Shown here in pieces: positions 10,862 through 28,075 of a stretch of DNA of 44,934 nucleotides. Source of the DNA: an uncultured Thermoplasmatales archaeon (GTDB taxonomy: Archaea > Thermoplasmatota > SW-10-69-26 > JACQPN01 > CAZDGP01); NCBI GenBank assembly GCA_964505085.1, contig CAZDGP010000001.1, positions 93,292-138,225 on the forward strand, read 5' to 3'. A program made the translations under genes and the position numbers. Positions within the stretch are counted from its first letter, which is position 1. The number at the start of each line of letters is the position of its first letter. The notes below the pieces were generated by a model. It was not told the origin of the DNA, made no database searches, and saw only the letters and a list, made by a program, of their open reading frames with translations.

Positions 10862-10923
10862 AGCTGCGCCATGGGGAACCAGCGCCTTGAACCTCACGCT
10901 GCCAGCACCCACCATGACCGAAC

Positions 10924-10933
10924 CCTTTAAAGG
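10924..10933. promoter_or_regulatory. palindromic TATA element CCTTTAAAGG in the polB / DGGGPS divergent gap
   Basis: Perfect 10-bp palindrome. Its centre is about 26-27 nt from ATG 10955 of the plus-strand gene, which predicts a leaderless mRNA. The symmetric position on the other side is about 10902, upstream of the polB ATGs at 10861 and 10807. Confidence 0.5.
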
Positions 10934-10954
10934 CCGGTTGGGGGTTGTCGAACC

Positions 10955-12537: not shown

Positions 12538-12630
12538 CCCGTCCCTGGCACCAACCCCTTCCCACCCGCTCCCCCACGCCCCTTGGGAGAGGTCCGAGGG
12601 TTCTTGAGCGAGGACCGCACATCCTCCTCC

Positions 12631-14454: not shown

Positions 14455-15141
14455 CTACGCGTGGTCCCCGCCGTCCTCGCCAGCGCGGAGGCGGCGCACC
14501 GCCGCCATCACGAGGAGGCCGATGGCGGCGAGGAGCACCATGAGGACGGCGCCGTAGAGGGACCGGAGCTCGAGGCTCGCGGCCAAGGCCTCCGGGAGCA
14601 CGATCCCCACGATGCGGGTAAGGATGATGGCTCCACCGACGATGAGGGCGGCGAGGAGGAGCGTGCGGCGGCTCCGGTTCACGCGGTGCTCCATGGTCCG
14701 TAGCACGCGGCTGCGGACATCTCGGTCCGGGGTGTCGTCGTCCTCCCGGGTGCCAAGGCGATCCTGGAGGCTCGCACCCTCCCGGGCACCTAGCATGGCC
14801 TGCAGGAGCACCGCGAGCCCCAGCGCTCCCGCCAGGGCGATGACCCAATCCAGCACGGTGGGGAGGCCCAGGCGGTAGGGAGTGGGCGCCAGGACGATGA
14901 GGACGGTGCCCCAAAGCGTCCAGTTCACCCGGCATCGGAGAACACCCAGAAGGCCCACGAGTCCCCCTGCTCCCGCCAGGGCGAACCCGAGGAGAAGCGA
15001 CCCGCCGACGCCGTCGAGGATGGGGCGTCCCCTAAGCACGAGGGTGACAGCTGCCGCCGTGGCCACGAGGAGCCCCAGGAGCGCCTGGCCCCGCGGCAGG
15101 TGCTCGCGGACCCTCTCGACGGGCGGTCCTCCGTTGCTCAT
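14455..15141 (-). CDS. hypothetical polytopic membrane protein, last gene of the giant-protein string
   Basis: 228 aa with 4-5 hydrophobic segments separated by an Arg/Asp-rich loop. ATG 15141 overlaps the DUF58 stop (ATGA). No family recognised. Confidence 0.6.
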   Translation of the reverse strand: MSNGGPPVERVREHLPRGQALLGLLVATAAAVTLVLRGRPILDGVGGSLLLGFALAGAGGLVGLLGVLRCRVNWTLWGTVLIVLAPTPYRLGLPTVLDWVIALAGALGLAVLLQAMLGAREGASLQDRLGTREDDDTPDRDVRSRVLRTMEHRVNRSRRTLLLAALIVGGAIILTRIVGIVLPEALAASLELRSLYGAVLMVLLAAIGLLVMAAVRRLRAGEDGGDHA

Positions 15142-16460
15142 CGGTTCATCACCCTCCCCAAGGCCATCTCCAGGGTCTCACCGGGTTCCCAGTTCACGAT
15201 GTTCGCGTCGTACCCGCGGAGCATCCGGAGGTTCTCCTGCCGCTCGAGGGTCCCCAGCTCGTGCTCGGTGCGGCCGCCGTTCAGGCGCTCCGGCTCCACC
15301 TCCGGTACCGGTGGCACGACCACGGTGACGTAGAGGTCCCGAGCGCGCAGGTTCCGCACCGCCCGGGCCACGGAGGGGTCCGCGGCGAGGTTGCTCACGA
15401 TGACCACGGGCGTCCGGGGGCTGAGGCTGGGAAGGATCTCGTCCACGACCTCCCCCAGCGTCATGGCACCGCGTCCAGGCTCCTGAACCATGAGCTCGCG
15501 GACGTCGTGGGACATGCGCTCTGCGCCCTGGGGCTCCACCTCCGTCAACCCGTCACCGTAGGCCAGCACCTGGACGCGGTCCCGGTTCCCGAAGAAGTAC
15601 CCCATGAGGCTCACCACGGCGCGGGCACCGTACACGTTGGCGTTGGCGCCGGCGGTGCCCAGGGTGCTCACCTCCCGGGCATCGAAGAGAAGCGTAACGA
15701 GGGTCTGGGATTCCCGCTCCCACTGGTTCACGATGAGCTCGTCGTCGCCGCTCTTGCTGCTCGCCTTCCAGTTCACGGACCGCATGGGGTCCCCCGGGAG
15801 GTAGTCGCGGAGGGCGAAGAAGTCCGTGCCGCCGCCGGGTTGCCCCGTGTGGAAGGCTCCGCTCACGAGGAAGGGCTGGCGGGCGTTGGCGAGCACGTCG
15901 TCCAGGTCCTCCGGGCGTGGGAACACCTTCAGGCTCTCGACGCCTCCGGCGGCCTCGTCCCGAACGAAGAACCCGAAGGCGTCGCGGAGCCGAAGCTCCA
16001 CCGGGCCCACGTCGAAGGTTCCCTTCACCGGGCTCGTGACCTCGTAGCGGAGCTCCTCCCCCGCGGCATCGTCGAGGTCCAAGAGGTCGTAGTTGCTGCC
16101 CTCGGTGAGGGTCATGGCATCCTCCAGGCGGTCCCGGATCTCGAAGCTCGCGTTGCCACCGCCGCGGGCTGTCCGCACCCGGAGGACCACAGCCACGGCA
16201 TCCCGCTCGCTGGTGGTGCGCTTCCCCATCTCCCGCTCCACCTCCACGTCCAACCCCCCCACCTGCACCGCTCCCAGCGTCAGAAGGGTGACGAGCACGA
16301 GGCCCGCCGCCGTGGGCAGGGGGTTGCCCAGGGCCAACCCCGCGAAGAGGAGCACGAGGGCAGCGGTGGCCGCAGCCCCCCCGCGGGGCGTGAGCTCCGG
16401 GAGGTGCAGGCGGTCCTTCAGGCTAGGTTGGGCCTCCGGCTCCGTCGAGGGGTCCGTCAC
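15138..16460 (-). CDS. DUF58 domain protein (vWA-like partner of MoxR-type systems)
   Basis: 440 aa. Two N-terminal TM segments, then the DUF58 hallmark FFALRDYLPGDPMRSVNWKASSKSGDDELIVNQWERE. The GTG start 16460 overlaps the DUF4350 stop (GTGA), with GGAGGTGA 4 nt upstream. Confidence 0.85.
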   Translation of the reverse strand: MTDPSTEPEAQPSLKDRLHLPELTPRGGAAATAALVLLFAGLALGNPLPTAAGLVLVTLLTLGAVQVGGLDVEVEREMGKRTTSERDAVAVVLRVRTARGGGNASFEIRDRLEDAMTLTEGSNYDLLDLDDAAGEELRYEVTSPVKGTFDVGPVELRLRDAFGFFVRDEAAGGVESLKVFPRPEDLDDVLANARQPFLVSGAFHTGQPGGGTDFFALRDYLPGDPMRSVNWKASSKSGDDELIVNQWERESQTLVTLLFDAREVSTLGTAGANANVYGARAVVSLMGYFFGNRDRVQVLAYGDGLTEVEPQGAERMSHDVRELMVQEPGRGAMTLGEVVDEILPSLSPRTPVVIVSNLAADPSVARAVRNLRARDLYVTVVVPPVPEVEPERLNGGRTEHELGTLERQENLRMLRGYDANIVNWEPGETLEMALGRVMNR

Positions 16461-17731
16461 GTGGTCACCTCCCTCGTGTTGTCTGCGTCCTGGGTGCCAG
16501 TGGGTGACGACGCTGCATCAACCTCGCTCCCGTAGGCGCGGATGCGCGCGAGCAGGCTCTCGGCCCGGGTGCGGTTCACGGAGGGGTCCTCCGCCTCCAG
16601 GAGCTCCCGGATGCGCGGGTCCCCGGCGGCCTCCACGGCGCGGGCACGCTTGTCCTGCACGTGGTCCGGGATCTCATGGTGTCGCATGACCTCCTGTAGG
16701 GCGAGACGCTGCAACCGCCACCCCATGAGGTCGGGGCGGTCGCTGGGGATGTGGACGCTGTCGAGGTCCTGCCGGTGCACGCGGAAGTCCTCCGGACGCT
16801 CCAGGAGGAGCAACCCCAGGAGGGCTCCGCCCACGAGGGTGATGAAAGCGACGGAGCCAAGGATGGGGTCCTGGGTGCCCAGGACCGCCGCGGTGCCCGC
16901 CCCCCGCACCATGCCGGTGCCCAGGGGAGCGCGGTGGCGGGACTCGTCGAAGACCACGGTGCCGCCCTGGGGCAGGAGGGTGAAGACGAGGTCCCGGATG
17001 AAGGCGTCGTTGCGTGCGCCATCCATGTCCATGACGGCGTTGGTGAAGATGCCGGGGTCGCTCACGAAGACGATGACGCCGTCCCCCGCCTCCACCTGGA
17101 CGGCCACGGGGAAGGGGCCCTCCGTATCCGCGTCGTCGGAACGCCCGTTCCCGTTGAGGTCGATGTACGCGTTGGGGCTGGTGCGCGCGATGACGGTGGC
17201 GTCAGCGTCGGGAGCCACGCTCAGGCTCGTGGGCACGTTGGTCACGACGCGGAAGCTCCGATCGCCGAGGGTGGCGTTCACGGCGACGAAGCTGCGGTTC
17301 CCCGCGAAGTCGTCGTCGGAGAGCACCACCCCGTCGAAGCTCACGCCGAAACGGTTCGCAACGCTGTTCCCGGAGCCGAAGTCGTCGGCGAGGACCACGC
17401 GGCCCCCGTCCCGGACGAAGGCCTCGATGGCGTCCACCTCGCTGGAGCGGTACGCCTCCTCCACCCCGAGGACGAGCACGGCGTACCGCGAGGGGTTCTC
17501 GACGCCGCCGAGGAGGTGGGGTGACGTCTGGATGTTCCCCGTGGGGTACCCGTCGGCCGCCAGGGCCGTCCGGACCCGGCTCGCATCCCGGGTATCGTCC
17601 CCGTAGGCGCTGAGCTGGCGCTCGGGCCCGGTGAGGGTGGAGACCACGAGGGTTCCCACGAGGGCCACAGCGATGAAGATGAGTGCCATGCGCTTCCGCC
17701 GGGGAGACCATCCGCTCCAGGGAAGGTTCAT
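16457..17731 (-). CDS. DUF4350 domain membrane protein
   Basis: 424 aa from ATG 17731 (GGAGGTG 5 nt upstream). It has an N-terminal TM, an ectodomain with YAVLVLGVEE...AFVRDGGRVVLADDFGSG typical of DUF4350/GldG-like folds, a second TM near residue 320, and a cytoplasmic tail. Confidence 0.8.
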   Translation of the reverse strand: MNLPWSGWSPRRKRMALIFIAVALVGTLVVSTLTGPERQLSAYGDDTRDASRVRTALAADGYPTGNIQTSPHLLGGVENPSRYAVLVLGVEEAYRSSEVDAIEAFVRDGGRVVLADDFGSGNSVANRFGVSFDGVVLSDDDFAGNRSFVAVNATLGDRSFRVVTNVPTSLSVAPDADATVIARTSPNAYIDLNGNGRSDDADTEGPFPVAVQVEAGDGVIVFVSDPGIFTNAVMDMDGARNDAFIRDLVFTLLPQGGTVVFDESRHRAPLGTGMVRGAGTAAVLGTQDPILGSVAFITLVGGALLGLLLLERPEDFRVHRQDLDSVHIPSDRPDLMGWRLQRLALQEVMRHHEIPDHVQDKRARAVEAAGDPRIRELLEAEDPSVNRTRAESLLARIRAYGSEVDAASSPTGTQDADNTREVTT

Positions 17732-17798
17732 GGTCCCACCTCCGAGGCCGTGGAGCCGCGGGCGGGTTGCCACCTTGGCCCCCCGCGAGGCCGTGAGC

Positions 17799-20700
17799 TC
17801 ACGTGGGTTCACCTCCGGGGTTCCCGGGGGCGGTGACCCATCGCTTGCCCTCGCTCAGGTCCTGCTGGAGCGCACGGAGGTTCGCCACGGCGCGGTCCCG
17901 CATCTCCGGCCCGGCGGGGCGGACGCTGTACCGGGCCTCGTCGAAGATGTCCACGAGGGTGCGGAGGTGGTCCGGTTGCACCGGCAACGCATCCTCCGCC
18001 GCAGCCGCGAACTCCCGAGCGGTGAGGTCGGGACGGTCCTCGACATCGCTCACCCGGGACACGAGGGAGACGAGAGCGCGGTACGTCTGCATGATGACGG
18101 CCTCGTACTCGTTGCCTGCGGCCAGTTGCTCCTCCGCCGCGCGCAGGATGTCCCCCGCCTCCTCCACCAGGCCGCGACGCCACCGGAGGTACCCGTAGAT
18201 GCCCAGGCCCACGATGCCCAGAGCCAGGAGCGCCAGGAGGATGGGGGGTGCTGCCTGGGTGAAGGTGGATTCGCTGGCCACGAGCGTGGTGCTCGAGGTC
18301 TGGGGGAGCTGGGATTGGCTCCCGGTGAAGCGGGCGGTGACGTCGCTGGTGCCGGCGCTCGTGACGCGTCCGGGGAAGGTGGCGACACCGGTCTCGTTCG
18401 TGGTGAGGGTGATGGGGTAGCGGAAGCCGGAGAACCGCACGCGCACCTGGCTGTTCTTGATGGGGTCGCCCTCATCGTCCACGAGGCGGATGGTCCCCGT
18501 GAAGTCCTCACCCACCGTGAGATCCCGCGGTACCGTGACCTGGATGTTGGGCTTGCCCTGGATCTGCACCTCGCTGGCGTGGACGGCCTCCACGTGGTTC
18601 GAGTCCCCCGCGTACCGCACCTCCAGGATGGTGCTGCCCCGGGGAAGGTCCTGATCGAGACCGCCCTGCAGGAGGAAGCTCCCGTCGGGGCTCGTCCGAC
18701 CAGTCGTGACGAGGCTCCCGTTGACGAGAACCTTCACGGGAGCGTTCTTCACGGGCTCCCCGAGGTTCGTGTGGAGCTCGCCCTTGAGGGTGAAGACCTC
18801 CCCTCGGACCAGGGGTGTGAGGCTCCGCACCACGATGTTCGTGTCGGAGAGGACGCGGTAGTGGGCGGTGGCGGTGACGTCGCTGAAGCGGTTCGACCCC
18901 GGGTAGGATGCCTTCACCGTGACGTTCTGCGGTGAGAGCCTGGACCCGTCGAAGGTGAGTTGGAACCGGCCGCTGAAGTCCGTGAACGCCGTCTGCTCCA
19001 CCCCGTTGAAGCTCACGGTGATGGGAGCAGCCACCACGGGGCGGTCCTCCCCATCCACGAGGGTGCCGTTCACTGGGATGGGGCCCGTGCGCACCGTGCG
19101 GTCCGCGATGGTGAGTGATGTGTCGGCCCGCACATGGTAGAACGTGGAGACGGGGCCAGCAGGTGCCAGGGCACCGTCGGGGCTTCCGGCGTACTCCGCC
19201 CGCACCAGGGCGCTTCCCAGCGGTCGGTCCTCGGGGATGGGGTGGGTAACCTGGAAGCGTCCCTCGGCGTCGGTGGTGACGGTACCGAGGTCCGCGGTCT
19301 CGAAGACCACGCTCACGGGGGCGTCCGCCACGGCGTTCCCGAGGTTGTCGGTGAGGAACCCCTCCACCACCATCGTCTCACCGCGTGTCACGGGTTTCGC
19401 GGGGACGTCGAGGTGGGTGACGCTGCGGACGAAGGTCCGGTCCTGTGTGGTGCTCGATGCGTAGAGGGGGCTCCCCTGGAAGTCCGCGTGGACGCTCACG
19501 TTCCCGGGTTCCTGGATGGCGTCGGCGGGGAGCTCCACCCGGAAGGTGCTCGTGGCGTTGTCCACGGGCGCGGTGCGGGATCGGTTCCCCACCTGCAGCG
19601 TGACCTGGAGGGCATGGTCCACGGTGCTGTCGCGCACCGGGAGCCCCGCGAGGTCACGGAGCTCTCCACGGAGGACTAGGGGTTCTCCAAGTGCGCCCTT
19701 GTCCACGCTCACGAAGACCTGGGCCACCTGCTTCACCGTGACGATGCCGGCGTCGGTGCTCGCGGGGACGTGGCGGTCGTTCCCCTCGAAGGAGACGGAG
19801 ACCTTCCGGTTGCCCACGGGCGCCTTCTCCGATACGGGGACCCTGGCGGACCAACGGCCCTCGGAGTCGGTGGAGGTGGAGGTGGTGGCATCGAGGAACG
19901 ACACGTCCACGCGGGCGCCGGTCACGGGCAGCCCGCGGCTGTCCACGAGGCGACCGCTCGTGGGAAGGGTCCGACCGGCCACCGCGGTGAGGGTCTCGTC
20001 GTCCACGGAGGCCTCCAGGGTCGTGGGGAAGCGCACGTTCACGGGCACCGTCACCGTGGTGCCTTCCACGAGCTCGCTGTCAGGGAAGATGAGGGTGAGG
20101 TCGTGGGTTCCGGGGGCGTTGAAGGGTTCGGTGGGTTCGTCGAGGGTGATGGTGCCGGTGGCGTCCGTGGTGGCACGGGTGAGGACGCTTCCGCGCCATT
20201 CCACGCGGACGTCGCGGCTTGTCAGGGGATCACCCACGTCGTCGGTGAGGGTGAAGCTCCCCTGGAGGTTCCTCCCGTTCGTGAGGGCGACCTCCTCCGG
20301 CGCCTGCCACGTGCTCCCCGTGCGGATCGTGATGGAGTCCCCGACGGTGTGGGGGTCGGTGAAGGTGGTGAGGACGTCGTCCGTGCCGTAGCTCCAGACC
20401 ACGACCCGGTAGTCGAAGCCGGGGTCGAGGGTGCTCGTGTTCACACCCCACGAGACGGTGGACCCTGCAGCGCGCGGCGTCCCGAAGAGGGTGAGGTCCG
20501 CAGGCACCGACGTGGCGGTGGTCCGAGTGAGGTTCGCTGTGACCTCGAAGCTTCCGGAGCCGTCGGTGAAACCGACGCCGAGCACGCGCCCTTCCGCGGG
20601 TCGGGCCTCGCCGGCGTTGCTTACGGGCAGGAGGTTCACCAGCACCGGCACGTTCGCGAGGTCCGCGGATGCGTCGAGGCGCCCGGTGACGGTGACGTGC

Positions 20701-23700
20701 CCGCCCTTGTACGCCACGTTCTCCGAGCGGGGGTAGGTCACGTCCACGTTCTGGAACGACGGGGTGGGTCGGTCGTCGCTGCTTGGCCCCGTGACACGGC
20801 CCTCCTCCCAGACGTAGGAGCGCACGAGAGCGGGATCCCGCGGGTCGCGGTCCCCCGCGTTGTCGGGATCAAGGAGCGGGTGGGGGTCCTCGCCGTTGAA
20901 GTCGTTGAGACCGTCGTTGTCGTAATCGTAGTCGTTGCCGAGGACCGTGCTGGAGTCGACGATGACGCCGTCGGAGGCCCCGTCCCCGTCGGTGTCCTCC
21001 CGCACGGGGTTGGACCCGAACCACCACACGCCATCCGTCTCCAGGTTCCAGTCGTCGGGCATCCCGAGCTCGTACTCCTGTAGGTCGCTCAGGGCGTCGT
21101 CATCGTTGCGGGTGTCGGAGGTGTCGAGGCCGTAGCGCACCTCGTAGAAGGCCACCCACCCGTCGGGGAGCCCGTCACCGTCGGAGTCGGGCTTGGTGGG
21201 GTCGGTGGCGGGGGTGCGGGTCTCCTCCCCCAGGAAGACGCGCTCGCCGCCGTCGGTGACGAAGTACACGATGCCGGCATCCAGGAAGCGCTGGGTGGCG
21301 GTGGCGGAGAGCTCGGACTCCTTGAGGTCCGTGCCGTCCAGCAGCCCGTCGTTGTCGGTGTCGAAGTCCGCCACGTCGGTGGGGGGTGAGCGCGTGAGCT
21401 CCTCGCTGTTGGGGATACCGTCGAAGTCCACGTCCCCGTTGGGGTCGTCGTCCTTGGGGAACATGGGGTCCGTGTTGAAGTCCCCGCTCACCTCGTCCCC
21501 GTCGGGGATGCCCCCGAGGTCGCTGTCCTCGAGCACCGGGTCGGTTCCCTCCATGGCCTCCACGCGGTTCGAGAGGCCGTCGCCGTCGGCATCCCGGGAG
21601 GCCCCGCTGGGGTCGTGGGGGTTGAACTGGGCCCCGGCGCCGGCGGCCCGCTCCTTGTAGTACAGCTCCCACGTGTCCTCCATGCCGTCCCCGTCGGTGT
21701 CCAGCAGCGTGGGATCGGTGCTGGCGTTGAACTCGCCCCGGTACGTGAGGTCGAAACGACCCTGCACCTTCACGACGTCGCGTTGGCCACCGTCGGGGTC
21801 GGGCACGCTCTCGTAGGTTTGGGCCACGGTCTCGTTGTACGCGTCCACGAGGTCCGCGGGGGCCTCAGCGAAGCGGGTGTAGGTGAGGCTCTTGCTCACG
21901 TCGCCGGCATCCCGGGGGTCCAGGGGATCGAGGTCCACGGGTCGGCTGCTCCCGAGGCTCACCCGCTGGAAGAAGACCTCCCACCCGTCGGGGATGCCGT
22001 CACCGTCGGTGTCCTCGGCGTTGGGGTCGGTGCCTGACTCGAACTCCGCGAGGTTGTCGTGGACGTACGCGCGAGGCTTCACGTACCCCTCGGAGTAGGT
22101 GACGCCGTCCTCGTCGAGGTCCCGGTCGGCGTCGGTCTTGCCGTCGTTCAGGTCGAGGCTGTCCTCGTCGCTGGCGTTGAGGTTCCAGTTGCCGCGGTCG
22201 TAGTTCCATCGCGCGTACTTGTTCTCCCACGCGTCCGGGAGGCCCTCACCGTCGGTGTCCACGAGGGCCGGGTCGGTGACGGGGAGGAGGTACGTGTCCT
22301 TGCTCCCGGGTGCTGCCTCCCGCCGGGGCGGGTCGAGCTCCTCCCCGTCGGGGATGGTGTCGCAATCGCTGTCGGGGTCCACGATGTTGGGGATGCCGTC
22401 GCCGTCGATGTCCCCCTGGGGCGCCAGGGCGCTTCGGACCTCGTCCAGGGTGGTGGCGTCCACGCCCTGACAGGTGGTGAGTTGGCCCTGGTCCCGGATG
22501 CGGCTCAACCCGTCGTCGCTCATGGACTCGCGGGCGTTCCGCCAGTGGTCGAGCTCCGCCTTGTCCCGGAGGCCGTCCCCGTCGGTGTCGGGGTCGGTGG
22601 GGTCGAGCTTGGGTTCCACCTGGTAGAGCACCTCGAAGCTGTCGCTCAACCCGTCGAGGTCGGTATCGGGACTGCGGGGGTCGAGGCTGCAGGGGCCGTC
22701 GGGGCAGAACTCGAGCTGGCGACCGGCCACGGAGCCGAAGCCCCGTTGCTCGTCGCGGTCCGTGAGGAAGTCCCCGTCGGTGTCGGCCTTCGTGGGGTCG
22801 CTCGTCACATGGACCTCCTCGCCGTCCACCTTCACGGTCCATCCCTCCACCTCCTCAGGGTCGTCGAGGCCGTCACCGTCGGTGTCCCGGGAGCGGGGGT
22901 CGGAATCCACCTGCGCCTCCTGACGGTTGAGGAGCCCGTCATCGTCGAAGTCCCCGTCGGCGTCGCCGGGGTCCAGGGGGTCCAGTTGGTACCGGACCTC
23001 CCACCCGTCGTCCATGGTGTCCCCGTCGCTGTCGGGGTTCCGCGGGTCGAGCCAGGAGGCGTAGTCCTCACCCACCGTGGGGAGGCGTCCGGGGTTGAAG
23101 CTGTCCCGGCTCCACCGGAACTCCTCCAGGTTCGAGAGGCCGTCATCGTCGGGGTCCATGAAGGAGACGCCGGGCTCCGTGAGGTTCAGGTCGTGCTCCA
23201 GGAGGTACCCGTCGCTGATGCCGTGGCCTGCGGTGCTGTAGGCCACGGGGTTGGTGTGGTGCACGAAGATCTCGTCGGGGTCGCTGATCCCATCGTGGTC
23301 GGTGTCGGCGCTGAAGGGGTCGGTGCCGTGCTCCGCCTCCTCGATGTTGGTGAGGCCGTCCCCGTCGGGGTCCCCATCCGTTCCGGCGGCGGTCCGGGGA
23401 TCGAGGCCGTCGTAACGGCACTCGAAGGCATCGTCCATGCCATCCCCGTCGGTGTCGGCCTTCCAGGGATCGCTCCCGCACTGGAACTCCTCCAGGTTCG
23501 TGAGACCGTCACCGTCAGGGTCCTCGCCGCTGTCGTTGAGGAGGGGGTTCACGCTGTACGTGTTGCTGATGGGGTCCAGACGGCGATGTTCGGCCTCCCA
23601 CCCGTCGGGGATGCCGTCACCGTCGGTGTCGCTCCGCGCAGGGTCGGTGCCGTACGTGTAGAGCTCCTGGAGGTCGCTTACGTTGTCCCCGTCGGTGTCC

Positions 23701-23933
23701 AGGCGGTCCAGGCCCGTGTCCTGCCCCGCGCCGGAGGGCTCGATCTGGGCGGACTCCGTGTACGGTTGGCTGAAGCTGGAGGCGGCGAAGACCACGGCTG
23801 CGACGACGAGGAGCCCGGCCACCGCGAGGGGTACGATCCGTTGCTTGTTCTCACCGAGGTACCGCCGGAGGGCGGAGCGGTCCCGGAGGAGGTCCAGGGC
23901 GTCCTGGATGCTCTCCTTCACCACCGCCGCCAC
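17799..23933 (-). CDS. giant envelope protein D: signal-anchor, about 27 thrombospondin-type-3 repeats, 8 Ig-like repeats, second TM, cytoplasmic DUF4129
   Basis: 2044-aa ORF, longest form. The likely start is GTG 23924 or GTG 23921, the latter forming a GTGA overlap with the stop of protein C; GGAGGTG lies at 23937-23931. TM segments are at residues 33-54 and 1894-1916. The C-terminal YRALVSL...TAREFA...LVDIFDEARYS matches DUF4129. Confidence 0.9.
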   Translation of the reverse strand: MAAVVKESIQDALDLLRDRSALRRYLGENKQRIVPLAVAGLLVVAAVVFAASSFSQPYTESAQIEPSGAGQDTGLDRLDTDGDNVSDLQELYTYGTDPARSDTDGDGIPDGWEAEHRRLDPISNTYSVNPLLNDSGEDPDGDGLTNLEEFQCGSDPWKADTDGDGMDDAFECRYDGLDPRTAAGTDGDPDGDGLTNIEEAEHGTDPFSADTDHDGISDPDEIFVHHTNPVAYSTAGHGISDGYLLEHDLNLTEPGVSFMDPDDDGLSNLEEFRWSRDSFNPGRLPTVGEDYASWLDPRNPDSDGDTMDDGWEVRYQLDPLDPGDADGDFDDDGLLNRQEAQVDSDPRSRDTDGDGLDDPEEVEGWTVKVDGEEVHVTSDPTKADTDGDFLTDRDEQRGFGSVAGRQLEFCPDGPCSLDPRSPDTDLDGLSDSFEVLYQVEPKLDPTDPDTDGDGLRDKAELDHWRNARESMSDDGLSRIRDQGQLTTCQGVDATTLDEVRSALAPQGDIDGDGIPNIVDPDSDCDTIPDGEELDPPRREAAPGSKDTYLLPVTDPALVDTDGEGLPDAWENKYARWNYDRGNWNLNASDEDSLDLNDGKTDADRDLDEDGVTYSEGYVKPRAYVHDNLAEFESGTDPNAEDTDGDGIPDGWEVFFQRVSLGSSRPVDLDPLDPRDAGDVSKSLTYTRFAEAPADLVDAYNETVAQTYESVPDPDGGQRDVVKVQGRFDLTYRGEFNASTDPTLLDTDGDGMEDTWELYYKERAAGAGAQFNPHDPSGASRDADGDGLSNRVEAMEGTDPVLEDSDLGGIPDGDEVSGDFNTDPMFPKDDDPNGDVDFDGIPNSEELTRSPPTDVADFDTDNDGLLDGTDLKESELSATATQRFLDAGIVYFVTDGGERVFLGEETRTPATDPTKPDSDGDGLPDGWVAFYEVRYGLDTSDTRNDDDALSDLQEYELGMPDDWNLETDGVWWFGSNPVREDTDGDGASDGVIVDSSTVLGNDYDYDNDGLNDFNGEDPHPLLDPDNAGDRDPRDPALVRSYVWEEGRVTGPSSDDRPTPSFQNVDVTYPRSENVAYKGGHVTVTGRLDASADLANVPVLVNLLPVSNAGEARPAEGRVLGVGFTDGSGSFEVTANLTRTTATSVPADLTLFGTPRAAGSTVSWGVNTSTLDPGFDYRVVVWSYGTDDVLTTFTDPHTVGDSITIRTGSTWQAPEEVALTNGRNLQGSFTLTDDVGDPLTSRDVRVEWRGSVLTRATTDATGTITLDEPTEPFNAPGTHDLTLIFPDSELVEGTTVTVPVNVRFPTTLEASVDDETLTAVAGRTLPTSGRLVDSRGLPVTGARVDVSFLDATTSTSTDSEGRWSARVPVSEKAPVGNRKVSVSFEGNDRHVPASTDAGIVTVKQVAQVFVSVDKGALGEPLVLRGELRDLAGLPVRDSTVDHALQVTLQVGNRSRTAPVDNATSTFRVELPADAIQEPGNVSVHADFQGSPLYASSTTQDRTFVRSVTHLDVPAKPVTRGETMVVEGFLTDNLGNAVADAPVSVVFETADLGTVTTDAEGRFQVTHPIPEDRPLGSALVRAEYAGSPDGALAPAGPVSTFYHVRADTSLTIADRTVRTGPIPVNGTLVDGEDRPVVAAPITVSFNGVEQTAFTDFSGRFQLTFDGSRLSPQNVTVKASYPGSNRFSDVTATAHYRVLSDTNIVVRSLTPLVRGEVFTLKGELHTNLGEPVKNAPVKVLVNGSLVTTGRTSPDGSFLLQGGLDQDLPRGSTILEVRYAGDSNHVEAVHASEVQIQGKPNIQVTVPRDLTVGEDFTGTIRLVDDEGDPIKNSQVRVRFSGFRYPITLTTNETGVATFPGRVTSAGTSDVTARFTGSQSQLPQTSSTTLVASESTFTQAAPPILLALLALGIVGLGIYGYLRWRRGLVEEAGDILRAAEEQLAAGNEYEAVIMQTYRALVSLVSRVSDVEDRPDLTAREFAAAAEDALPVQPDHLRTLVDIFDEARYSVRPAGPEMRDRAVANLRALQQDLSEGKRWVTAPGNPGGEPT
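17859..18161 (-). other. DUF4129-like cytoplasmic tail domain of protein D
   Basis: Residues about 1925-2025, immediately after the TM segment PPILLALLALGIVGLGIYGYL and a RWRRG stop-transfer. It carries the T-x-R-E-F and ARYS motifs characteristic of DUF4129. Confidence 0.7.
18279..20711 (-). repeat. eight tandem ~95-100-aa beta-sandwich repeats (CarboxypepD_reg / bacterial Ig-like type) in protein D
   Basis: A recurring pattern G-x-L-x-D-x-x-G-x-P-V...V-x-V-x-F...T-D-x-x-G-x-F appears at residues about 1075-1885. Examples: GRLVDSRGLPVTGARVDVSF...TDSEGRW and GFLTDNLGNAVADAPVSVVF...TDAEGRF. Confidence 0.75.
20898..23705 (-). repeat. array of about 27 thrombospondin type-3-like Ca-binding repeats in protein D
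   Basis: D-x-D-x-D-G-x-x-[DN]-x-x-E motifs, for example DTDGDGIPDGWE (twice), DPDGDGLTNLEE and DTDGDGMDDAFE, counted by eye between residues 77 and 1012. The plus-strand DNA core CCGTCGGTGTC recurs at least 10 times. Confidence 0.85.
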
Positions 23934-26900
23934 CTCCGGGTGACGACGGCGCCGACGGCCGCGGTGAGGACGAGGAGGAGGAAGCCGGGGCCGGGAACGT
24001 TGGCTTCGGAGGGGAGCTCCACGACCTTGGCGTTGTTCGTCTCGTCCGTCTCGACGAACTCGTTCCTGTGGTCCAACGCCACCGTGAGGTTGTCCTGCAC
24101 CTCCACCACGGTCCAGGGGATCTGGAAGAGGCGGGTCTCACCCGGCGGCAGGCTCTCGAGGGTGAGGTTCCTCACGACCTCACCATCCACCAGGATCGCG
24201 AGGTCCACCCCGTTGGCGGGTACGTTGCCGTCGTTCACCACCGTCACGGCCAGCCTCCCGGGTTCTCCGGGGGTGAGGTCCCGGGTGATGCTGCGAACCT
24301 CCTCGATGCGGAGGTCGCGCTTGATCCAGTTCGCGGCGAGGTCGAAGCTCTTGGACTCCCCAAGGGGGAGGTCCGCGTCCACGGTCCACACCACCGAGCT
24401 CGAACCCATGGATGCGGGGGCCTCCAGGAGCACATCGACCTCGATGGTCTCCCCCGGTGCGAGGTTGACCGTGCTGCGGGACCTGTTGAGGAACGTGGCG
24501 CTCCAACCATCAGGTACGTCCAGGGTGAGCCTGGAGGAGAGGTCCACGTTCCCGACGTTCGTTACGTTGAGGGGGACGCGGGTCCCGCTTCCGGGTGGTA
24601 CCAGGGTGAGGTCGCTGGGTGGCGTCACCTGCAGGTTGGCTCGGCGGGCCACCTGGATGGTGGCGTTGAACTGGTGGAGACCCCGTTCGCCGTCGGGCGT
24701 CTCCATGAAGAAGCTGAACGTGACGTTGTAGGCGCCGCTCTCGGCGCCGCTGGGCACCTGGAGGTCCCCGGCGACGCTCACGGCATCGCCGGTGTCGAGG
24801 CGCCGAGTGGCGAGGGGTGTCGTCTTGTCGAAGCTCCATCCCGGGGGGAGCCCCGTGACGTTCATGCGAAGGTCGAAGGGTCCGTTGGCGGCGTTGGAAG
24901 CCGTGAACCGGTACGTGAAGTCGTCACCGGGCAGAAGGCTCCGGGGTTGGACGCCCCGGAGGTCCAGGGTGAAGTTGTTCCCGACGACGGCCCGGACGCG
25001 GGTTCCCGCCTCCGCGCTCGTCCCCGAGCTCGTGGAGCTCGTGGCGGTGATGCCGAGGTCCATGATCTCTCCCACAGGGGCGTCGTCGCCAGCGGTAAGG
25101 GTGACGTTCACGACGCGCACGTCCCCGGGTTCACCCTGGGCGTTCCGCGTGCCGTTGGCCCGGAGGAGGAAGCTCTCGGGCTCGGGGGTGACGCTCCAAC
25201 CGGGGAGCCGGAGGGGGCTCGTGCCCATGGTGACCACGGTGTCGTCCCCCTCGTTCACCACCTCCACCTGGAAGGTGGCGTTCTCGCCGGGGAGGATGGG
25301 CAGGCTCGTCTGCTGGGCGCGGATGCTGAACTCCGTGTTGAGATCCGGCACGGTGGTGGCCACCACCTGGCTCCGGGCGCTGTTGTCCTTGACGCTGATG
25401 GCCTGCACGGCGGCCTCGCAACCGAAGCCGAGGCTCGAGTCGCCGGTGCTCGTGACGTTGAGGAACACGACGCGCTCCTCGTTCCGGGGGATCGCCACGC
25501 TACCCTCGCTCGTGTCGGGGGTGGCAAGGACCGAGCCGTCCGCGGCCTCCACACGGGTATCGTACCCGAAGCGGCTGCAGTCGCTCACGGTGAACTTGAA
25601 CGCGTCGTCGCCGGTTCCCGTGTTGTTCACGAGGATGGCGTACGTCGTGGACTCACCGCTCTCGACGAGGCGCTCGATGCTCTTGAGGTTGTTGGCGCGG
25701 AACACGGTGTCCACGCTGTGGCGGGTGCGCACGGCCACCTGGAGCTCACTCTCCGCCGTCATCTCGGGGTTCCCCTGGCTGGTGGCCGTGAGGTTCACCT
25801 GGAGGGTCTGGCCGGTCTCGGCCTCCTCCGGCACCTCGATGACGAGGGTGACGCGACGGGTCTCGAAGGTCTCGACACCCGCCTCGAAGGTGCTGGAGAG
25901 CGTCACCGGCCACTCCCGGCTGCTGTTGAGCTGGAGCACCACATCGTCGGGGAGGTTCCCCTTGCCCACGCTCCGGCCCAGGTTCGTCACGTCGAGACCG
26001 ATGCGCCGGTCCTCGCCGGGGGCCAGGGTGAGGGTGCGAAGGCTCTTGCCCCACCGGATGAGGTTCCCGTGGAACTCCCCTTCGCCCACGTGGTACACGG
26101 GGGACCGGGTGGCGGAGGAGAAGTACGTGCTCGTACGCCCGTTCCCGTCGGAGAAGTTGGGGCTCACGGTGTACACGAACACGGGCTTCGAGGACTCCAC
26201 GCGGTACGCTCCCGGTCCGGGGAAGAGGTACCCCGAGCCCCCGCGGTCCTCCTCCAGGAACCGGTGGCGGTTGATGGTCTCGTTGAAGACGATCTCCCCG
26301 GTGTCGGTGTCCCGCACCATCACGTGGGTGCGGTCGAAGGCCGGGTAGACGACCATGCGGTGGTTGTCGTCGGCGGTGCCGCGCATGGGCACCTCGAAGG
26401 TGGTGCCCTGGACACCGCCCCAGGGCACGACACCCTGGTCGGGGTCCAGGACCACGCTGAAGTCCCCGTCACCGATGAGGCCGAAGGTGTTCCCCCAGCT
26501 GGAGCTCCACGTGTTGAAGTCATGCATGTCCAGGAGCCAGGGGTCGTGGGGTGCCGGCGCCACCACCTTGGTGCTGCTCACGGAGGCGTCCGCGGTGTTG
26601 TACGCCTGCACCTCCACCGGTTCCTCGCCGCTGGCCCAGGCGCGGAACCCGTAGTACAGGGGCGAGTAGAAGGTGTCCCCCACGGGGGACCCGTAGGCGC
26701 TGGGCACCTGGACGCCCATGTTGTCGCGGGTGCCTGCCTGGGCCACCGCGATAGGGGTGGTGGAGGACATGAAGACGGGGGATCCCGCGGGGATCCGGAG
26801 GTGCTTGGCCTCACCGGGGCCGAGGACGAAGGACTCGCCGCCGTTGCTCCATCCTGCGTTGACGCGGGCCCGCTCCTGGGTGGCGATGACGTTCACGTCG

Positions 26901-28075
26901 AGATTCGCCTTGCACACGCCCACGTCGGGGCGCTGGAGGGAGCGGAAGCGGTACTGCGTCCCCACGAGGCCGCCATCCTCGCTGGGGTAGAACAACCCGT
27001 GGGGGCAGTCCTTGAGGCTGCTCGGGGTGGGTCGGAGCGCGGTGTACACGGGTTTGTCCGCTCGGACGTAGAAGTGGAAGGGTTGGTCGGCCTTCACCCT
27101 GACCGTGAGGGTGTCGCTGCTGTCGCCCATGGGTTGCACCTCGAAGGTGGGGGCCTCCGTCACGTCCCCGAGGGTCTGCTCGTCGTTGGCGTCGACGCAG
27201 GCGCCCACGGAGCTCGAGGTGCACCGCTTGAGGGCGGTGGGCTCCAGACCGCTGTGCGTGTACCGGTAGATCTGCACCGCGGTGTCGTCGTAGAGCCCGT
27301 ACACGTCGATCTGGGGTTGCGAGCCGGTGCCGGAGCTGCTGGGATCCCAGGGTGCGTACCCGTAGATGTCGGTGCCGCGACGGATCCAGTACAACCCGTT
27401 GAGGTCCCCAAGGTTCTCGGCCGACGTGTCGGGTTCGGGCTTGTCCCCGTTCTCCTCGATGTCGAAGTACACGAAGTAGAGGCGGTCGGTGTTGAACTCC
27501 CCGTTCACCGTCCAGGTGACCGTGCCCACGGCGTTGGCGTGAGGGTCGAAGCGGTCGTTCCGGTTCTCGGGGTTCTCGAGGAGCGTGGGGGTGAAGATGC
27601 TGGGCACGAGGGTCGAGCGGTCGGGCTGCTGCTTGATGGTGCCTGAACCGCGGTCGTACTCCACCACGCGTACGCTGTCCTCGTCGAAGGTGAAGCTGTT
27701 CAGCGCGCCGGAGACGTCCTGGGGCCAACTGCGGTCGGGGTCGTCGGCGGACCGGCGGATGGCCTCGGTGAAGTCCACCTCCACGCTCACCGTGAGGTCG
27801 GGGATCCCCCGCGTGTCGGCGAACCGTCCCTCCACCACGGCGTCGGGGAACCGGGGTTCCAGGTGGACCGGGACACGCATGTGCCACCCGTCGTTCCACC
27901 ACTCGTACGTGACGCCGTCCTGGAGGACGTCCGCGTCCCCATCGTCCGTCCCGCTGGTGGTCTGCGCCGCCGCAGGGAGCGGCAGCATGGGCGTGACGAG
28001 GACCAGGACCAGCACGAGGACGGGCAGGGTGGTGCGGAACCCTCGCGTCAGGACGTCCACCTCCGGCGAAGGCAT
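23918..28075 (-). CDS. giant envelope protein C: signal peptide, ~640-aa unclassified region, CARDB/NEW3-like array, PGF-CTERM-like end
   Basis: 1385 aa from ATG 28075; the alternative start is GTG 28060. The signal peptide is MPSPEVDVLTRGFRTTLPVLVLVLVLVTPMLPLPAAAQ. The gene overlaps the end of protein B by 28 nt. The upstream part of the 28273 ORF is Arg/Gly filler read through the end of gene B. Confidence 0.88.
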   Translation of the reverse strand: MPSPEVDVLTRGFRTTLPVLVLVLVLVTPMLPLPAAAQTTSGTDDGDADVLQDGVTYEWWNDGWHMRVPVHLEPRFPDAVVEGRFADTRGIPDLTVSVEVDFTEAIRRSADDPDRSWPQDVSGALNSFTFDEDSVRVVEYDRGSGTIKQQPDRSTLVPSIFTPTLLENPENRNDRFDPHANAVGTVTWTVNGEFNTDRLYFVYFDIEENGDKPEPDTSAENLGDLNGLYWIRRGTDIYGYAPWDPSSSGTGSQPQIDVYGLYDDTAVQIYRYTHSGLEPTALKRCTSSSVGACVDANDEQTLGDVTEAPTFEVQPMGDSSDTLTVRVKADQPFHFYVRADKPVYTALRPTPSSLKDCPHGLFYPSEDGGLVGTQYRFRSLQRPDVGVCKANLDVNVIATQERARVNAGWSNGGESFVLGPGEAKHLRIPAGSPVFMSSTTPIAVAQAGTRDNMGVQVPSAYGSPVGDTFYSPLYYGFRAWASGEEPVEVQAYNTADASVSSTKVVAPAPHDPWLLDMHDFNTWSSSWGNTFGLIGDGDFSVVLDPDQGVVPWGGVQGTTFEVPMRGTADDNHRMVVYPAFDRTHVMVRDTDTGEIVFNETINRHRFLEEDRGGSGYLFPGPGAYRVESSKPVFVYTVSPNFSDGNGRTSTYFSSATRSPVYHVGEGEFHGNLIRWGKSLRTLTLAPGEDRRIGLDVTNLGRSVGKGNLPDDVVLQLNSSREWPVTLSSTFEAGVETFETRRVTLVIEVPEEAETGQTLQVNLTATSQGNPEMTAESELQVAVRTRHSVDTVFRANNLKSIERLVESGESTTYAILVNNTGTGDDAFKFTVSDCSRFGYDTRVEAADGSVLATPDTSEGSVAIPRNEERVVFLNVTSTGDSSLGFGCEAAVQAISVKDNSARSQVVATTVPDLNTEFSIRAQQTSLPILPGENATFQVEVVNEGDDTVVTMGTSPLRLPGWSVTPEPESFLLRANGTRNAQGEPGDVRVVNVTLTAGDDAPVGEIMDLGITATSSTSSGTSAEAGTRVRAVVGNNFTLDLRGVQPRSLLPGDDFTYRFTASNAANGPFDLRMNVTGLPPGWSFDKTTPLATRRLDTGDAVSVAGDLQVPSGAESGAYNVTFSFFMETPDGERGLHQFNATIQVARRANLQVTPPSDLTLVPPGSGTRVPLNVTNVGNVDLSSRLTLDVPDGWSATFLNRSRSTVNLAPGETIEVDVLLEAPASMGSSSVVWTVDADLPLGESKSFDLAANWIKRDLRIEEVRSITRDLTPGEPGRLAVTVVNDGNVPANGVDLAILVDGEVVRNLTLESLPPGETRLFQIPWTVVEVQDNLTVALDHRNEFVETDETNNAKVVELPSEANVPGPGFLLLVLTAAVGAVVTRRWRRW
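23921..23995 (-). other. PGF-CTERM-like tripartite sorting signal of protein C
   Basis: The C-terminus is V-PGPGF-LLLVLTAAVGAVV-TRRWRRW: a PGF motif, a hydrophobic helix and a basic tail. Codon positions were verified (VPGPGF = 23998-23981). Confidence 0.65.
24011..26038 (-). repeat. array of ~100-aa CARDB / NEW3-like beta-sandwich domains in protein C
   Basis: Residues about 680-1355 show repeated L-x-P-G-E...V-x-V-x-N-x-G...P-x-G-W-S...V-x-L-x-V motifs. The array ends in a clear CARDB domain (LTPGEPGRLAVTVVNDGNVPANGVDLAILVDGE...ETDETNN). Confidence 0.7.

Follow-up and report, generated by a model that had tools for sequence, protein, structure and literature searches.

Gene D of a Thermoplasmatota archaeon encodes a giant cell-surface protein that is anchored by two membrane helices. 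Its extracellular part of about 1,840 residues consists of 26 acidic loops of the TSP3 type followed by a stalk of eight Ig-like domains, and a cytoplasmic DUF4129 tail is predicted behind the second helix. Judged by sequence comparison, this architecture is not unique, and D is part of a conserved gene cassette rather than a one-off oddity. By our estimate it is slightly better than an even chance that D would serve as an envelope or adhesion scaffold, its tail coupling it to a membrane machine made of DUF4350, DUF58 and, in some genomes, MoxR proteins.

Reading frame and domain composition of D

In the window, i.e. the whole stretch of 44,934 nucleotides analyzed, gene D is located at 17799..23933 on the minus strand and encodes a TSP3/Ig-like/DUF4129 membrane protein of 2,044 aa, according to the ORF list, translation, Pfam matches and GC3. 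The public gene call (P0001; 100% match) starts three codons later at 23924, resulting in 2,041 aa. Since the GC3 of 0.91 exceeds that of the antisense ORFs (0.65-0.77), the minus strand was confirmed as the coding strand.

Domains were called by Pfam search of the translation. The TSP3-like region (residues 77-1019; 20877..23705, minus strand) matched TSP3_bac with an E value of 5.6e-28 and 96.9 bits (cut-off 25). It comprises 20 exact DxDxDG motifs by motif count and 26 units of this type by a self-built repeat HMM; the repeats described in the first-pass annotation were thereby recovered, while their number of about 27 was corrected to 26. The acidic loops are predicted to bind Ca2+. The six cysteines of D form three pairs in this region, 152/172, 410/415 and 488/524, with 410/415 within EFCPDGPC. 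Membership of D in the CglD/MtsD family was also considered and rejected, as the NCBIfam matches to CglD (3e-40) and MtsD (3.9e-18) are both far below the cut-offs.

The Ig-like part (residues 1062-1883; 18285..20750, minus strand) gave Pfam matches to Big_3_5 (4e-18), CarboxypepD_reg (1e-16), MG4 and Big_1. With an internal-repeat HMM, eight repeats of about 90-100 aa each were delimited; of the eight repeats of about 95 aa annotated before, seven are clear and in tandem (1208-1883), while the eighth is divergent (1062-1163). Pfam and profile scans of D detected no transglutaminase core, and the ectodomain bears no obvious ligand-binding head.

The presence of a C-terminal DUF4129 domain, as originally annotated, was borne out by a Pfam match at residues 1951-2020 (E 7.9e-13, 48.7 bits, cut-off 24.8). 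The predicted cytoplasmic tail covers residues 1917-2034 (17832..18185, minus strand), and in its AF2 model (pLDDT 89.7) one continuous helix leads from the membrane-crossing TM2 into a four-helix bundle of about 120 residues. Among the 35 tails of alignment A1, Y2002 is the one invariant Tyr, Y1951 and T1971 hardly vary, and the motifs AYxxL, T(P/A)RE(F/Y) and LFEEARY are conserved. No relatives of the tail were found in the PDB by fold or by sequence; the fold is a generic four-helix bundle, and a catalytic look-alike was not found.

Genes upstream and downstream of D

The DUF4350 and DUF58 genes annotated next to D were both verified by Pfam (3e-14 and 1.5e-10, respectively), and start/stop codon overlaps join D and the downstream cassette genes in the window. 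The DUF4350 gene is located at 16457..17812 on the minus strand (public call: 424 aa, start at about 17731). According to hydropathy, an AF2 model (pLDDT 80.9) and Foldseek (5fms_A 9e-9, 7oci_G 6e-7), its product consists of a TM helix, a GldG/IFT52-N/Wbp1-like ectodomain, a second TM helix and a small cytoplasmic helical domain. It thereby has the topology of D, and by hydropathy and the model the bulk of the protein is extracellular and not cytoplasmic. The DUF58 (vWA-like) gene (15138..16460, minus strand) shares 4 nt with the DUF4350 gene; Pfam, hydropathy and alignment indicate a TM hairpin at the N-terminus of its product and a cytoplasmic domain behind it. Alignment of DUF58 proteins revealed a conserved NWKASAR motif and, in the archaeal proteins, DAR..S/T at the place of the vWA DxSxS MIDAS motif. 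Because of this replacement, a classical vWA-type peptide capture is uncertain. The last cassette gene (14455..15141, minus strand), overlapping the DUF58 gene by 4 nt, encodes U228, a protein with about five TM helices by hydropathy and no Pfam or NCBIfam match; counterparts follow DUF58 in L001, L002, L005, L007 and L009.

In all class A loci with downstream sequence, DUF4350 is the next gene after D, and a stop/start overlap is usual. The order D, DUF4350, (MoxR), DUF58, small membrane protein was found in the window and in L001, L002, L005-L010, L019, L032 and L057, with MoxR between DUF4350 and DUF58 in some genomes only. The whole 45-kb window lacks MoxR, as do the related loci L002, L032 and L057. 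If there is an ATP-driven step in this clade at all, it would have to rely on a MoxR from another locus.

Upstream of D, giant CARDB surface proteins precede the cassette in D's lineage. By Pfam and hydropathy, the direct upstream partner G1451 (23918..28273, minus strand; true start probably near 28075) is composed of a signal peptide, a CARDB/NPCBM_assoc/Ig_VWA7 ectodomain and a C-terminal TM anchor, and the junction sequence places its stop over the start of D. In this lineage it is a constant neighbor of D: a counterpart was found directly upstream in eight loci, and in P0029 and P0032 the two proteins form a single chain. Pfam and hydropathy likewise identified G3488 (28048..38514, minus strand), a CARDB-rich surface protein of 3,488 aa with signal peptide and C-terminal TM; L001 and L002 have counterparts of 4,048 and 5,265 aa, respectively, in the corresponding place. 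They also identified G2138+ (38511..44927, minus strand), a surface protein (>2,138 aa) with fn3 domains and a C-terminal TM; the 5' end of its gene is outside the window, and the gene has a 4-nt overlap with the next one.

Proposed function and alternative explanations

Surface exposure and an adhesion role of D are suggested by its motifs. In the scaffold model, Ca2+ binding to the acidic TSP3-like loops would stiffen the outer part of D, and the stiffened protein together with the CARDB giants would form an adhesion or envelope scaffold. The DUF4129 bundle would be the cytoplasmic handle of D, which the membrane-tethered DUF58 protein, as a vWA-like co-chaperone, could grip together with the MoxR ATPase where present, thereby assembling, remodeling or turning over the surface complex. 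The bacterial MoxR-DUF58-TgpA operon and the Rv3691-3693 cluster of mycobacteria would follow the same logic. D and its downstream neighbors show strong synteny and translational coupling, and a physical link of the tail to the DUF4350 and DUF58 proteins may exist.

Although we consider it rather unlikely, D could be an autonomous adhesin or envelope protein, with DUF4129 as cytoplasmic stopper or oligomerization domain stabilizing the anchor and with DUF4350 and DUF58 not acting on D. In the giants of Marine Group II and in P0140, which also bear this tail, no DUF4350, MoxR or DUF58 gene was detected next door, so that the tail may work alone; the lack of MoxR in the window and the generic bundle fold of the tail point in the same direction. 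However, DUF4350 is a constant neighbor of D in its clade, small 4TM-DUF4129 proteins of other archaea likewise adjoin MoxR-DUF58, and the family-wide invariant residues of the tail suggest a specific partner.

It is improbable that D acts instead as an outside-in sensor, a filament that detects contact with a particle, neighbor, epibiont or virus and relays the signal via the TM helix and DUF4129 to DUF58/MoxR; such a role has been suggested for the Esr pathway of Actinobacteria. In Esr, a surface filament made of Ig-like repeats is combined with MoxR, vWA and transglutaminase proteins (bioRxiv 10.64898/2026.09.08.750141), MoxR-vWA ternary systems have been interpreted as threat sensors (PMC7159879), and the continuity of TM2 with the first tail helix in the AF2 model is a geometry fit for signal transmission. 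Nevertheless, the Pfam matches of the operon genes include no kinase, phosphatase, FHA protein, effector or beta-propeller head, PADLOC gave no matches, MoxR is missing from the window, and the ectodomain lacks an obvious head for ligands.

Membrane topology

A Kyte-Doolittle scan revealed only two hydrophobic segments in D (about 30-57 and 1889-1918), where the two TM helices had been annotated: TM1 at residues 33-54 (23772..23837, minus strand) and TM2 at residues 1894-1916 (18186..18254, minus strand), the latter followed by RWRRG. Among 49 orthologues, K+R counts around TM1 are 3.6 on the N side and 1.0 on the C side; around TM2 they are 0.9 and 4.3, respectively. P0029 and P0032 are natural fusions in which TM1 follows directly after the C-terminal anchor of the upstream protein and forms a TM hairpin with it, so that TM1 must cross the membrane. 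The predicted topology with both termini in the cytoplasm and the ectodomain outside, already assumed in the first-pass annotation, is thus supported by positive-inside statistics and by the fusions, with TM1 as an uncleaved N-in signal anchor; for TM2, the AF2 model is a further basis.

Cleavage of TM1 as a Sec/Tat-type signal peptide, which would leave mature D as a type I protein with a single C-terminal anchor, is very unlikely. An RR pair 10 residues ahead of the hydrophobic stretch and FAASS behind it resemble such a peptide, and the upstream giants do bear classical short ones. However, the uncharged stretch of 23 aa in D (median 25, minimum 19 in the 49 orthologues) has the length of a TM helix and is too long for an h-region, charged residues (ENKQR) separate it from the RR pair, and in both fusions the segment is internal.

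Conservation of the architecture

Orthologue contigs were drawn from NCBI, JGI, ENA and Logan. A search for orthologues had been proposed with the first annotation, and about 60 full-length ones with 27-54% identity were found, mostly in Thermoplasmatota MAGs; the ectodomain-DUF4129 fusion is conserved in them, with both hydrophobic segments and a tail of 107-127 aa. That an assembly or frameshift artefact joined two separate genes, one for a surface protein and one for DUF4129, is practically inconceivable, because these independent contigs share the uninterrupted architecture, and GC3 is uniform along the whole gene D.

The view of DUF4129 as an otherwise stand-alone module and of its fusion as unusual had to be abandoned. 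A profile of TM helix plus tail matched 13,703 cluster representatives. Lengths of 1,200-3,000 aa are frequent among these, and the long matches include Marine Group II proteins and versions with a transglutaminase core. The tail also occurs behind Ig-only, TSP3+transglutaminase+Ig and 4-TM N-terminal parts.

Comparison with known systems

Myxococcus CglD/MtsD and the type-3 repeats of eukaryotic thrombospondin/COMP share only the acidic DxDxDG-type repeat with D, which lacks the lipoprotein signal, vWA domain, EGF modules and thrombospondin C-terminal domain. The giants of Marine Group II (Poseidoniales), like D, consist of an N-terminal TM, TSP3 units (31-34 in their case), an Ig-like part, a TM and a DUF4129 tail; they are longer (2,560-2,670 aa) and have none of the cassette genes detected next to them. 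Their P0107-type relatives (L003/L004, 2,352 aa, 37 TSP3 units) contain an additional transglutaminase core, while the one Poseidoniales protein scanned (L013) has none. Marine Group II thrombospondin genes were interpreted as adhesion genes (PMC6461757); the accessible parts of that paper and of PMC8821943 do not mention the tail.

Like the D locus, the threat-sensing Esr pathway found in oral Actinobacteria and the PFNA operon of Bifidobacterium encode a long surface protein made of beta-sandwich repeats; its gene is accompanied there by those for MoxR, a vWA/DUF58 protein and a transglutaminase. Further members of both systems are Ser/Thr kinases, phosphatases and FHA proteins, and Esr also has a beta-propeller head, none of which is found at the D locus. 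Unlike D, their surface proteins carry no DUF4129 domain of their own. The mycobacterial genes Rv3691-Rv3693 form a DUF4350, MoxR, DUF58 cluster, in the same order as in the D cassette, which is co-regulated in M. chelonae, and in Streptomyces a DUF4129 protein of about 320 aa is encoded near DUF58 (PMC8191103; PMC12093942). Compared to D, the DUF4129 proteins of these actinobacterial clusters are small, without a giant ectodomain and without CARDB giants upstream.

We take PA2875 and PA2874, beside the TgpA gene, to encode MoxR and DUF58, and a DUF4129 domain presumably follows the last TM of TgpA. TgpA (PA2873, Pseudomonas aeruginosa; operon PA2875-PA2872) has its periplasmic domain between TM5 and TM6; like D, TgpA/YebA-like transglutaminases hold an extracytoplasmic domain between TM helices, followed by the last TM (PMC3507681). 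They also share the gene linkage to MoxR and DUF58 with D's family, and the MoxR-vWA-membrane transglutaminase operon was proposed to be a membrane-proximal protein-processing system (PMC3495828). In contrast to TgpA, D has no transglutaminase core, one N-terminal TM instead of the 5-TM DUF3488 block and an about five times larger ectodomain of TSP3 and Ig repeats, and its locus has an interposed DUF4350 gene and no MoxR.

A small archaeal cassette of 4TM-DUF4129, DUF7269-like, MoxR and DUF58 genes was found in Methanomassiliicoccales, Aciduliprofundum and Thermoprotei. It shares the homologous tail (E 1e-19 to 1e-30, tail profile) and the MoxR-DUF58 linkage with the D cassette, whereas its DUF4129 protein has four TM helices without ectodomain and a DUF7269-like gene takes the place of DUF4350; it looks like the ancestral version. 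P0081 and P0207 combine Transglut_core and DUF4129 in a single chain, P0081 within a cassette identical to D's. D, which has no transglutaminase, seems to be derived from TgpA-like giants, and such giants persist in relatives such as P0081.

Reading frame and domain anatomy of protein D

Protein D is encoded on the minus strand at 17799..23933 by an open reading frame (ORF) which, according to ORF listing and translation, comprises 2,044 codons without interruption. The gene call of a 100% identical public protein (P0001) begins three codons later, resulting in 2,041 aa. The GC3 of D is 0.91, equal to that of MCM and the neighboring genes, whereas the long antisense ORFs have values of 0.63–0.77, and therefore the coding strand of D is certain. 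These antisense ORFs (28132..37293, 24068..27646 and 22059..24731, all on the plus strand, up to 3,053 aa) were also considered as genes and rejected, since real genes reach 0.91–0.92; they do not code and result from the high G+C content.

A hydropathy scan revealed exactly two hydrophobic segments in D (residues ~30–57 and ~1889–1918), the second directly followed by RWRRG. The bacterial TSP3 repeat PF18884 (TSP3_bac) was matched with an E-value of 5.6e-28 (96.9 bits; cut-off 25), and a repeat HMM built from D itself resolved 26 TSP3-like units at residues 77–1019, with 20 exact DxDxDG motifs counted in the protein. The six cysteines form three close pairs, EFCPDGPC among them. Ig-like Pfam matches were found between residues 1300 and 1885 (Big_3_5, 4e-18; CarboxypepD_reg, 1e-16; MG4; Big_1), and a second repeat HMM delimited seven tandem repeats of ~90 aa (1208–1883) and a divergent eighth (1062–1163). 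At the C-terminus, DUF4129 (PF13559) was matched at residues 1951–2020, covering profile positions 2–69 of 69 (E-value 7.9e-13; 48.7 bits; cut-off 24.8), so that both this profile and TSP3 scored above their gathering cut-offs. Thereby, the helices TM1 (~33–54) and TM2 (~1894–1916) with the adjoining RWRRG, the Cys pairs and the C-terminal DUF4129 described in the first-pass annotation were all recovered by hydropathy, motif count and Pfam; its ~27 TSP3 repeats were off by one, and its eight Ig-like repeats of ~95 aa correspond to the seven tandem copies and the divergent one. Thrombospondin type-3 repeats are established Ca2+ binders, and the units of D probably bind Ca2+ as well.

Conservation and spread of the architecture

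A full-length search identified about 60 proteins of 1,870–2,280 aa spanning at least 95% of D at 27–54% identity, and the named relatives stem from Thermoplasmatota MAGs. The annotation of nearly all ~60 includes TSP3_bac, Ig-like families and DUF4129. The N-terminal hydrophobic segment is kept in all except a few with truncated N-termini, and the second one is located 107–127 residues from the C-terminus in every relative. The fusion is thus conserved among orthologs, which refutes an assembly or frameshift artefact.

The tail following TM2 occurs far beyond these relatives. With the 166-aa tail alone as query, a word-indexed search gave no homologues, and an exhaustive profile search was needed; among 1.84 billion cluster representatives, it matched 13,703 at E ≤ 1e-3, of which 4,152 also reach E ≤ 1e-10. 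The lengths of the best 150 matches cluster near 300, 1,200–1,400, 1,900–2,300 and 2,600–3,000 aa, and sampled matches carried Ig-like domains with DUF4129, DUF4129 only, or TSP3, a transglutaminase core and Ig domains with DUF4129. For the locus search, an 8-sequence tail subset was used as seed, as the full 35-sequence alignment was too divergent. The 51 loci obtained from GTDB species genomes fall into three classes. Class A comprises D-like giants followed by DUF4350, in part MoxR, DUF58 and a small polytopic protein, and is found in Thermoplasmatota from soils and sediments. Class B comprises Marine Group II (MGII) giants of 2,560–2,670 aa with 31–34 TSP3 units and the same tail, without DUF4350, MoxR or DUF58 neighbors. 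In class C, proteins of ~300–340 aa combine four TM helices with the tail, and their genes are followed by DUF7269-like, MoxR and DUF58 genes in Methanomassiliicoccales, Aciduliprofundum and Thermoprotei. The classes and the sampled matches together suggest that DUF4129 is a recurrent cytoplasmic tail on membrane proteins with a variable outer part. It is not the otherwise stand-alone module assumed in the first-pass annotation, and with this number of tail matches and giants in several length groups the architecture is less unusual than stated there; the impression of uniqueness does not hold against database searches.

Several further observations were made on these loci. At L013 (1389..9407) and other Poseidoniales loci, the C-terminus of the MGII 'thrombospondin' giants consists of a TM helix and a DUF4129 tail. 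The related proteins P0107 and P0118 (L003 and L004, 10001..17059) have a transglutaminase motif that looks intact, GKCIDFA...HAWAEVY, and the tail of P0107 was overlooked by precomputed Pfam annotation. Two contigs, L010 (JAJPHT010000008.1) labelled 'Proteobacteria bacterium' and L032 (JAIVGT010000001.1) labelled 'Halobacteriales archaeon', carry a Thermoplasmatota-type D cassette nonetheless; binning or labelling errors are possible.

Membrane topology

In 49 orthologues, Lys and Arg residues number 3.6 on average in the 15 positions preceding TM1 and 1.0 after it, while around TM2 the corresponding numbers are 0.9 and 4.3. This is the pattern expected of an N-terminus inside, a loop outside and a C-terminus inside. 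In the same orthologues, TM1 is free of charged residues over a median of 25 positions and never fewer than 19, a length that agrees better with a signal anchor spanning the membrane than with a signal peptide removed by cleavage. In addition, P0029 and P0032 (3,274 aa) are natural fusions of a protein like G1451, the 1,451-aa giant encoded upstream of D, with a D-like protein. At their junction, the anchor TM is followed by ARLRALWRLTSPRER, the equivalent of TM1 and the TSP3 repeats. As it follows the anchor TM, the TM1 equivalent must span the membrane in these fusions. Cleavage of TM1 as a signal peptide is therefore an unlikely, minor alternative, with both the length of the uncharged stretch and the internal, membrane-crossing position in the fusions against it. 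Charge bias and fusions thus support the earlier claim that both ends of D lie inside the cell and the giant loop outside, and by the positive-inside rule DUF4129 is predicted on the cytoplasmic side. The fusion via a TM hairpin is also a Rosetta-stone link of the G1451 and D genes, and a G1451/D-like fusion at L057 (10001..19825) occupies the same operon position.

The DUF4129 tail

In D, 127 residues lie beyond the last TM, with DUF4129 C-terminal and directly after TM2 and RWRRG. An alignment of 35 tails revealed the common motifs AYxxL, T[PA]RE[FY] and LFEEARY; Y2002 is invariant, Y1951 and T1971 nearly so. The AlphaFold2 model obtained with this alignment is confident (pLDDT 89.7), and in it TM2 and helix 1 of a four-helix bundle form one unbroken helix. 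Foldseek comparison of the model with the PDB gave no match at E ≤ 1e-3; HEPN and FAT/talin-type four-helix bundles (best E-value 0.03) were regarded as generic bundles and not as homologs. Sequence searches of the PDB likewise gave no match for the tail and none at E ≤ 1e-3 for D. With no hint of catalysis in the modeled fold, the tail looks like an interaction module.

The cassette downstream of D

Seven minus-strand genes form a block in which each stop overlaps or abuts the next start. Their order is a >2,138-aa fn3 protein that extends beyond the window, a 3,488-aa protein rich in CARDB, G1451, D in fourth place, DUF4350, DUF58 and U228. DUF4350 and DUF58 had been named as the genes following D, and both were matched by Pfam. 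In class A loci with DNA reaching the gene, DUF4350 (16457..17812, minus strand, in the window) directly follows D, usually overlapping a few bases; DUF58 comes after DUF4350 where the DNA extends that far, and a U228-like protein after DUF58 in most loci that could be checked. U228 itself (14455..15141, minus strand; 228 aa, ~5 TM) had no match in Pfam, NCBIfam or PADLOC, and is kept as last cassette gene in several Thermoplasmatota loci. No defence system was recognised in the operon by PADLOC.

MoxR is encoded between DUF4350 and DUF58 in L001, L005–L010 and L019. It is absent from the cassettes of the window, L002, L032 and L057, and none was found in the whole 45-kb window, where the DUF58 gene looks intact. 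According to hydropathy, DUF58 has an N-terminal TM hairpin followed by a cytoplasmic domain. In the alignment, archaeal DUF58 proteins retain NWKASAR, and DAR..S/T replaces the DxSxS MIDAS motif with or without MoxR. A coupling of MoxR loss to decay of the MIDAS-like motif was considered and rejected, as DAR..S/T occurs in all archaeal members.

The DUF4350 protein was modeled with 19 homologues (pLDDT 80.9). Hydropathy and model predict the topology of D, i.e. TM, ectodomain, TM and a small cytoplasmic helical domain, the latter comprising ~70 aa and folded in the model. The ectodomain model resembles the N-terminal domain of GldG/IFT52 (Foldseek 9e-9) and Wbp1 of oligosaccharyltransferase (6e-7), both of which are non-catalytic scaffold domains.

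Upstream giants and other genes of the window

The three giant surface-protein genes preceding D (>2,138, 3,488 and 1,451 aa; G2138+, G3488 and G1451) extend over 23918..44927 on the minus strand with overlapping stops and starts. Their domains include CARDB, NPCBM_assoc, Ig_VWA7, fn3 and MAM-like, with CARDB and NPCBM_assoc in G1451. In all three, a TM anchor close to the C-terminus is followed by a short basic tail. Classical short signal peptides are present in G3488 and in G1451 from its probable true start, and the 5′ end of G2138+ lies beyond the window. The G1451 ORF (23918..28273, minus strand) starts too far upstream, as it opens with ~66 Arg-rich codons ahead of the signal peptide. 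The C-terminus of G1451 (...PGPGF-TM-RRWRRW) resembles an archaeosortase signal; PGF-CTERM and other sorting-signal NCBIfam models gave no match at E ≤ 0.01 to D or the three giants. In eight loci, G1451-like genes terminate at the start of D.

The window is archaeal, with genes for MCM, family-B DNA polymerase, NMD3, GGGP synthase, a UbiA prenyltransferase and an aIF-2B-like protein. The adjacent genes for a UbiA-family prenyltransferase and PcrB/GGGP synthase (10955..12537, plus strand) form an archaeal ether-lipid gene pair, followed by the aIF-2B-like gene (12583..13521, plus strand) and a radical-SAM gene (13518..14387, minus strand). The PolB ORF (8381..11713, minus strand) also starts too far upstream; its first ~270 codons overlap the UbiA gene on the opposite strand.

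Proposed function

DUF4129, DUF4350 and DUF58 are widespread families which adjoin MoxR ATPases in bacteria and archaea, and we know of no function for any of them. At the D locus, their cassette serves a giant, clearly extracellular protein, with the fusions P0029 and P0032 supporting the topology. Together, this leads to a testable idea: MoxR/DUF58 would act on an extracytoplasmic client, with the DUF4129 bundle as the client's handle in the cytoplasm. We infer that the TSP3 units of D would bind Ca2+ and form an extended surface element with the Ig stalk; in concert with G1451 and the remaining CARDB giants, this element may act as a scaffold in adhesion or in the envelope. The DUF4129 bundle would be the site at which cytoplasmic DUF58, with MoxR where encoded, acts on D to assemble, remodel or remove it. 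The architecture of D is clean, conserved and experimentally approachable.

The tail of D may also work on its own as an autonomous anchor, as MGII giants and P0140 carry it without DUF4350, MoxR or DUF58 neighbors and MoxR is missing from the window. Less probably, D may be a contact sensor akin to EsrA of oral Actinobacteria, in whose pathway a filament of Ig repeats occurs together with MoxR, vWA and transglutaminase (bioRxiv 10.64898/2026.09.08.750141); against this, the operon genes include no kinase, FHA or effector, and PADLOC was empty. Rather improbable is a further reading, in which the cassette would be an archaeal trans-membrane coupling device analogous to integrin and focal adhesions. 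Here, the Ca2+-stiffened adhesin D would be paired outside with the CARDB giants and gripped inside by the DUF4129 bundle, and the GldG/IFT52-like DUF4350 protein would be a co-receptor beside the DUF58/MoxR machine, whose remodelling of the bundle would switch adhesin conformation, anchoring or turnover. If true, this would be a regulated attachment organ for wall-less Thermoplasmatota, including the abundant MGII.

Public databases already list proteins of the D family, under the names 'DUF4129 domain-containing protein' or 'hypothetical'. Full-text literature searches for DUF4129 gave nothing on the D family, and no published description was found of an ectodomain between two TMs with a DUF4129 tail, its cassette with DUF4350/DUF58, or the link to CARDB giants. 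In the parts of the literature consulted (PMC6461757, PMC8821943), the MGII versions are mentioned only as 'thrombospondin' adhesion genes; these ecological markers would encode membrane proteins with a conserved cytoplasmic domain and not simple secreted glycoproteins.

Comparison with known systems

Eukaryotic thrombospondin and COMP contain EGF modules and a C-terminal lectin-like domain, neither of which was detected in D by Pfam. In archaeosortase substrates of the PGF-CTERM type, signal, TM and a short basic tail form the extreme C-terminus, unlike the long post-TM tail of D. MoxR-vWA ternary conflict systems (Kaur et al. 2020) need MoxR, vWA and a third component with effector domains; in the operon genes, Pfam detected no VMAP, iSTAND, FtsH, beta-propeller or effector domains.

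D shares with TgpA/YebA-like proteins a final TM followed by a C-terminal DUF4129, which we take to be located after the last TM of TgpA, with PA2875 and PA2874 presumably being MoxR and DUF58. TgpA is critical for viability in Pseudomonas. However, D has a single N-terminal TM in place of the 5-TM DUF3488 block (no DUF3488 match in Pfam; hydropathy), and its ectodomain lacks the transglutaminase core with the Cys-His-Asp triad; neither a Transglut_core match nor a GxCxxF[AST] motif indicated a hidden one. The TgpA-type operon includes MoxR and DUF58; the window has DUF58 but not MoxR, and MoxR is encoded in part of the orthologous loci (L001, L005–L010 and L019). A relative of D, P0081, has a transglutaminase core in its ectodomain, a segment without counterpart in D, and is encoded in an identical cassette; D may therefore be read as a transglutaminase-less derivative of TgpA-like giants. 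In TgpA, the periplasmic transglutaminase domain lies between TM5 and TM6 and is followed by the C-terminal tail (PMC3507681), and for the trio of MoxR, vWA and membrane transglutaminase, Zhang and Aravind proposed a membrane-proximal protein-processing system (PMC3495828). Mycobacteria encode DUF4350-MoxR-DUF58 in the same gene order (PMC8191103). By analogy, the bacterial MoxR-DUF58-TgpA operon appears to be the closest model for the D cassette, which would place D with the uncharacterised TgpA-like clients of MoxR/DUF58.
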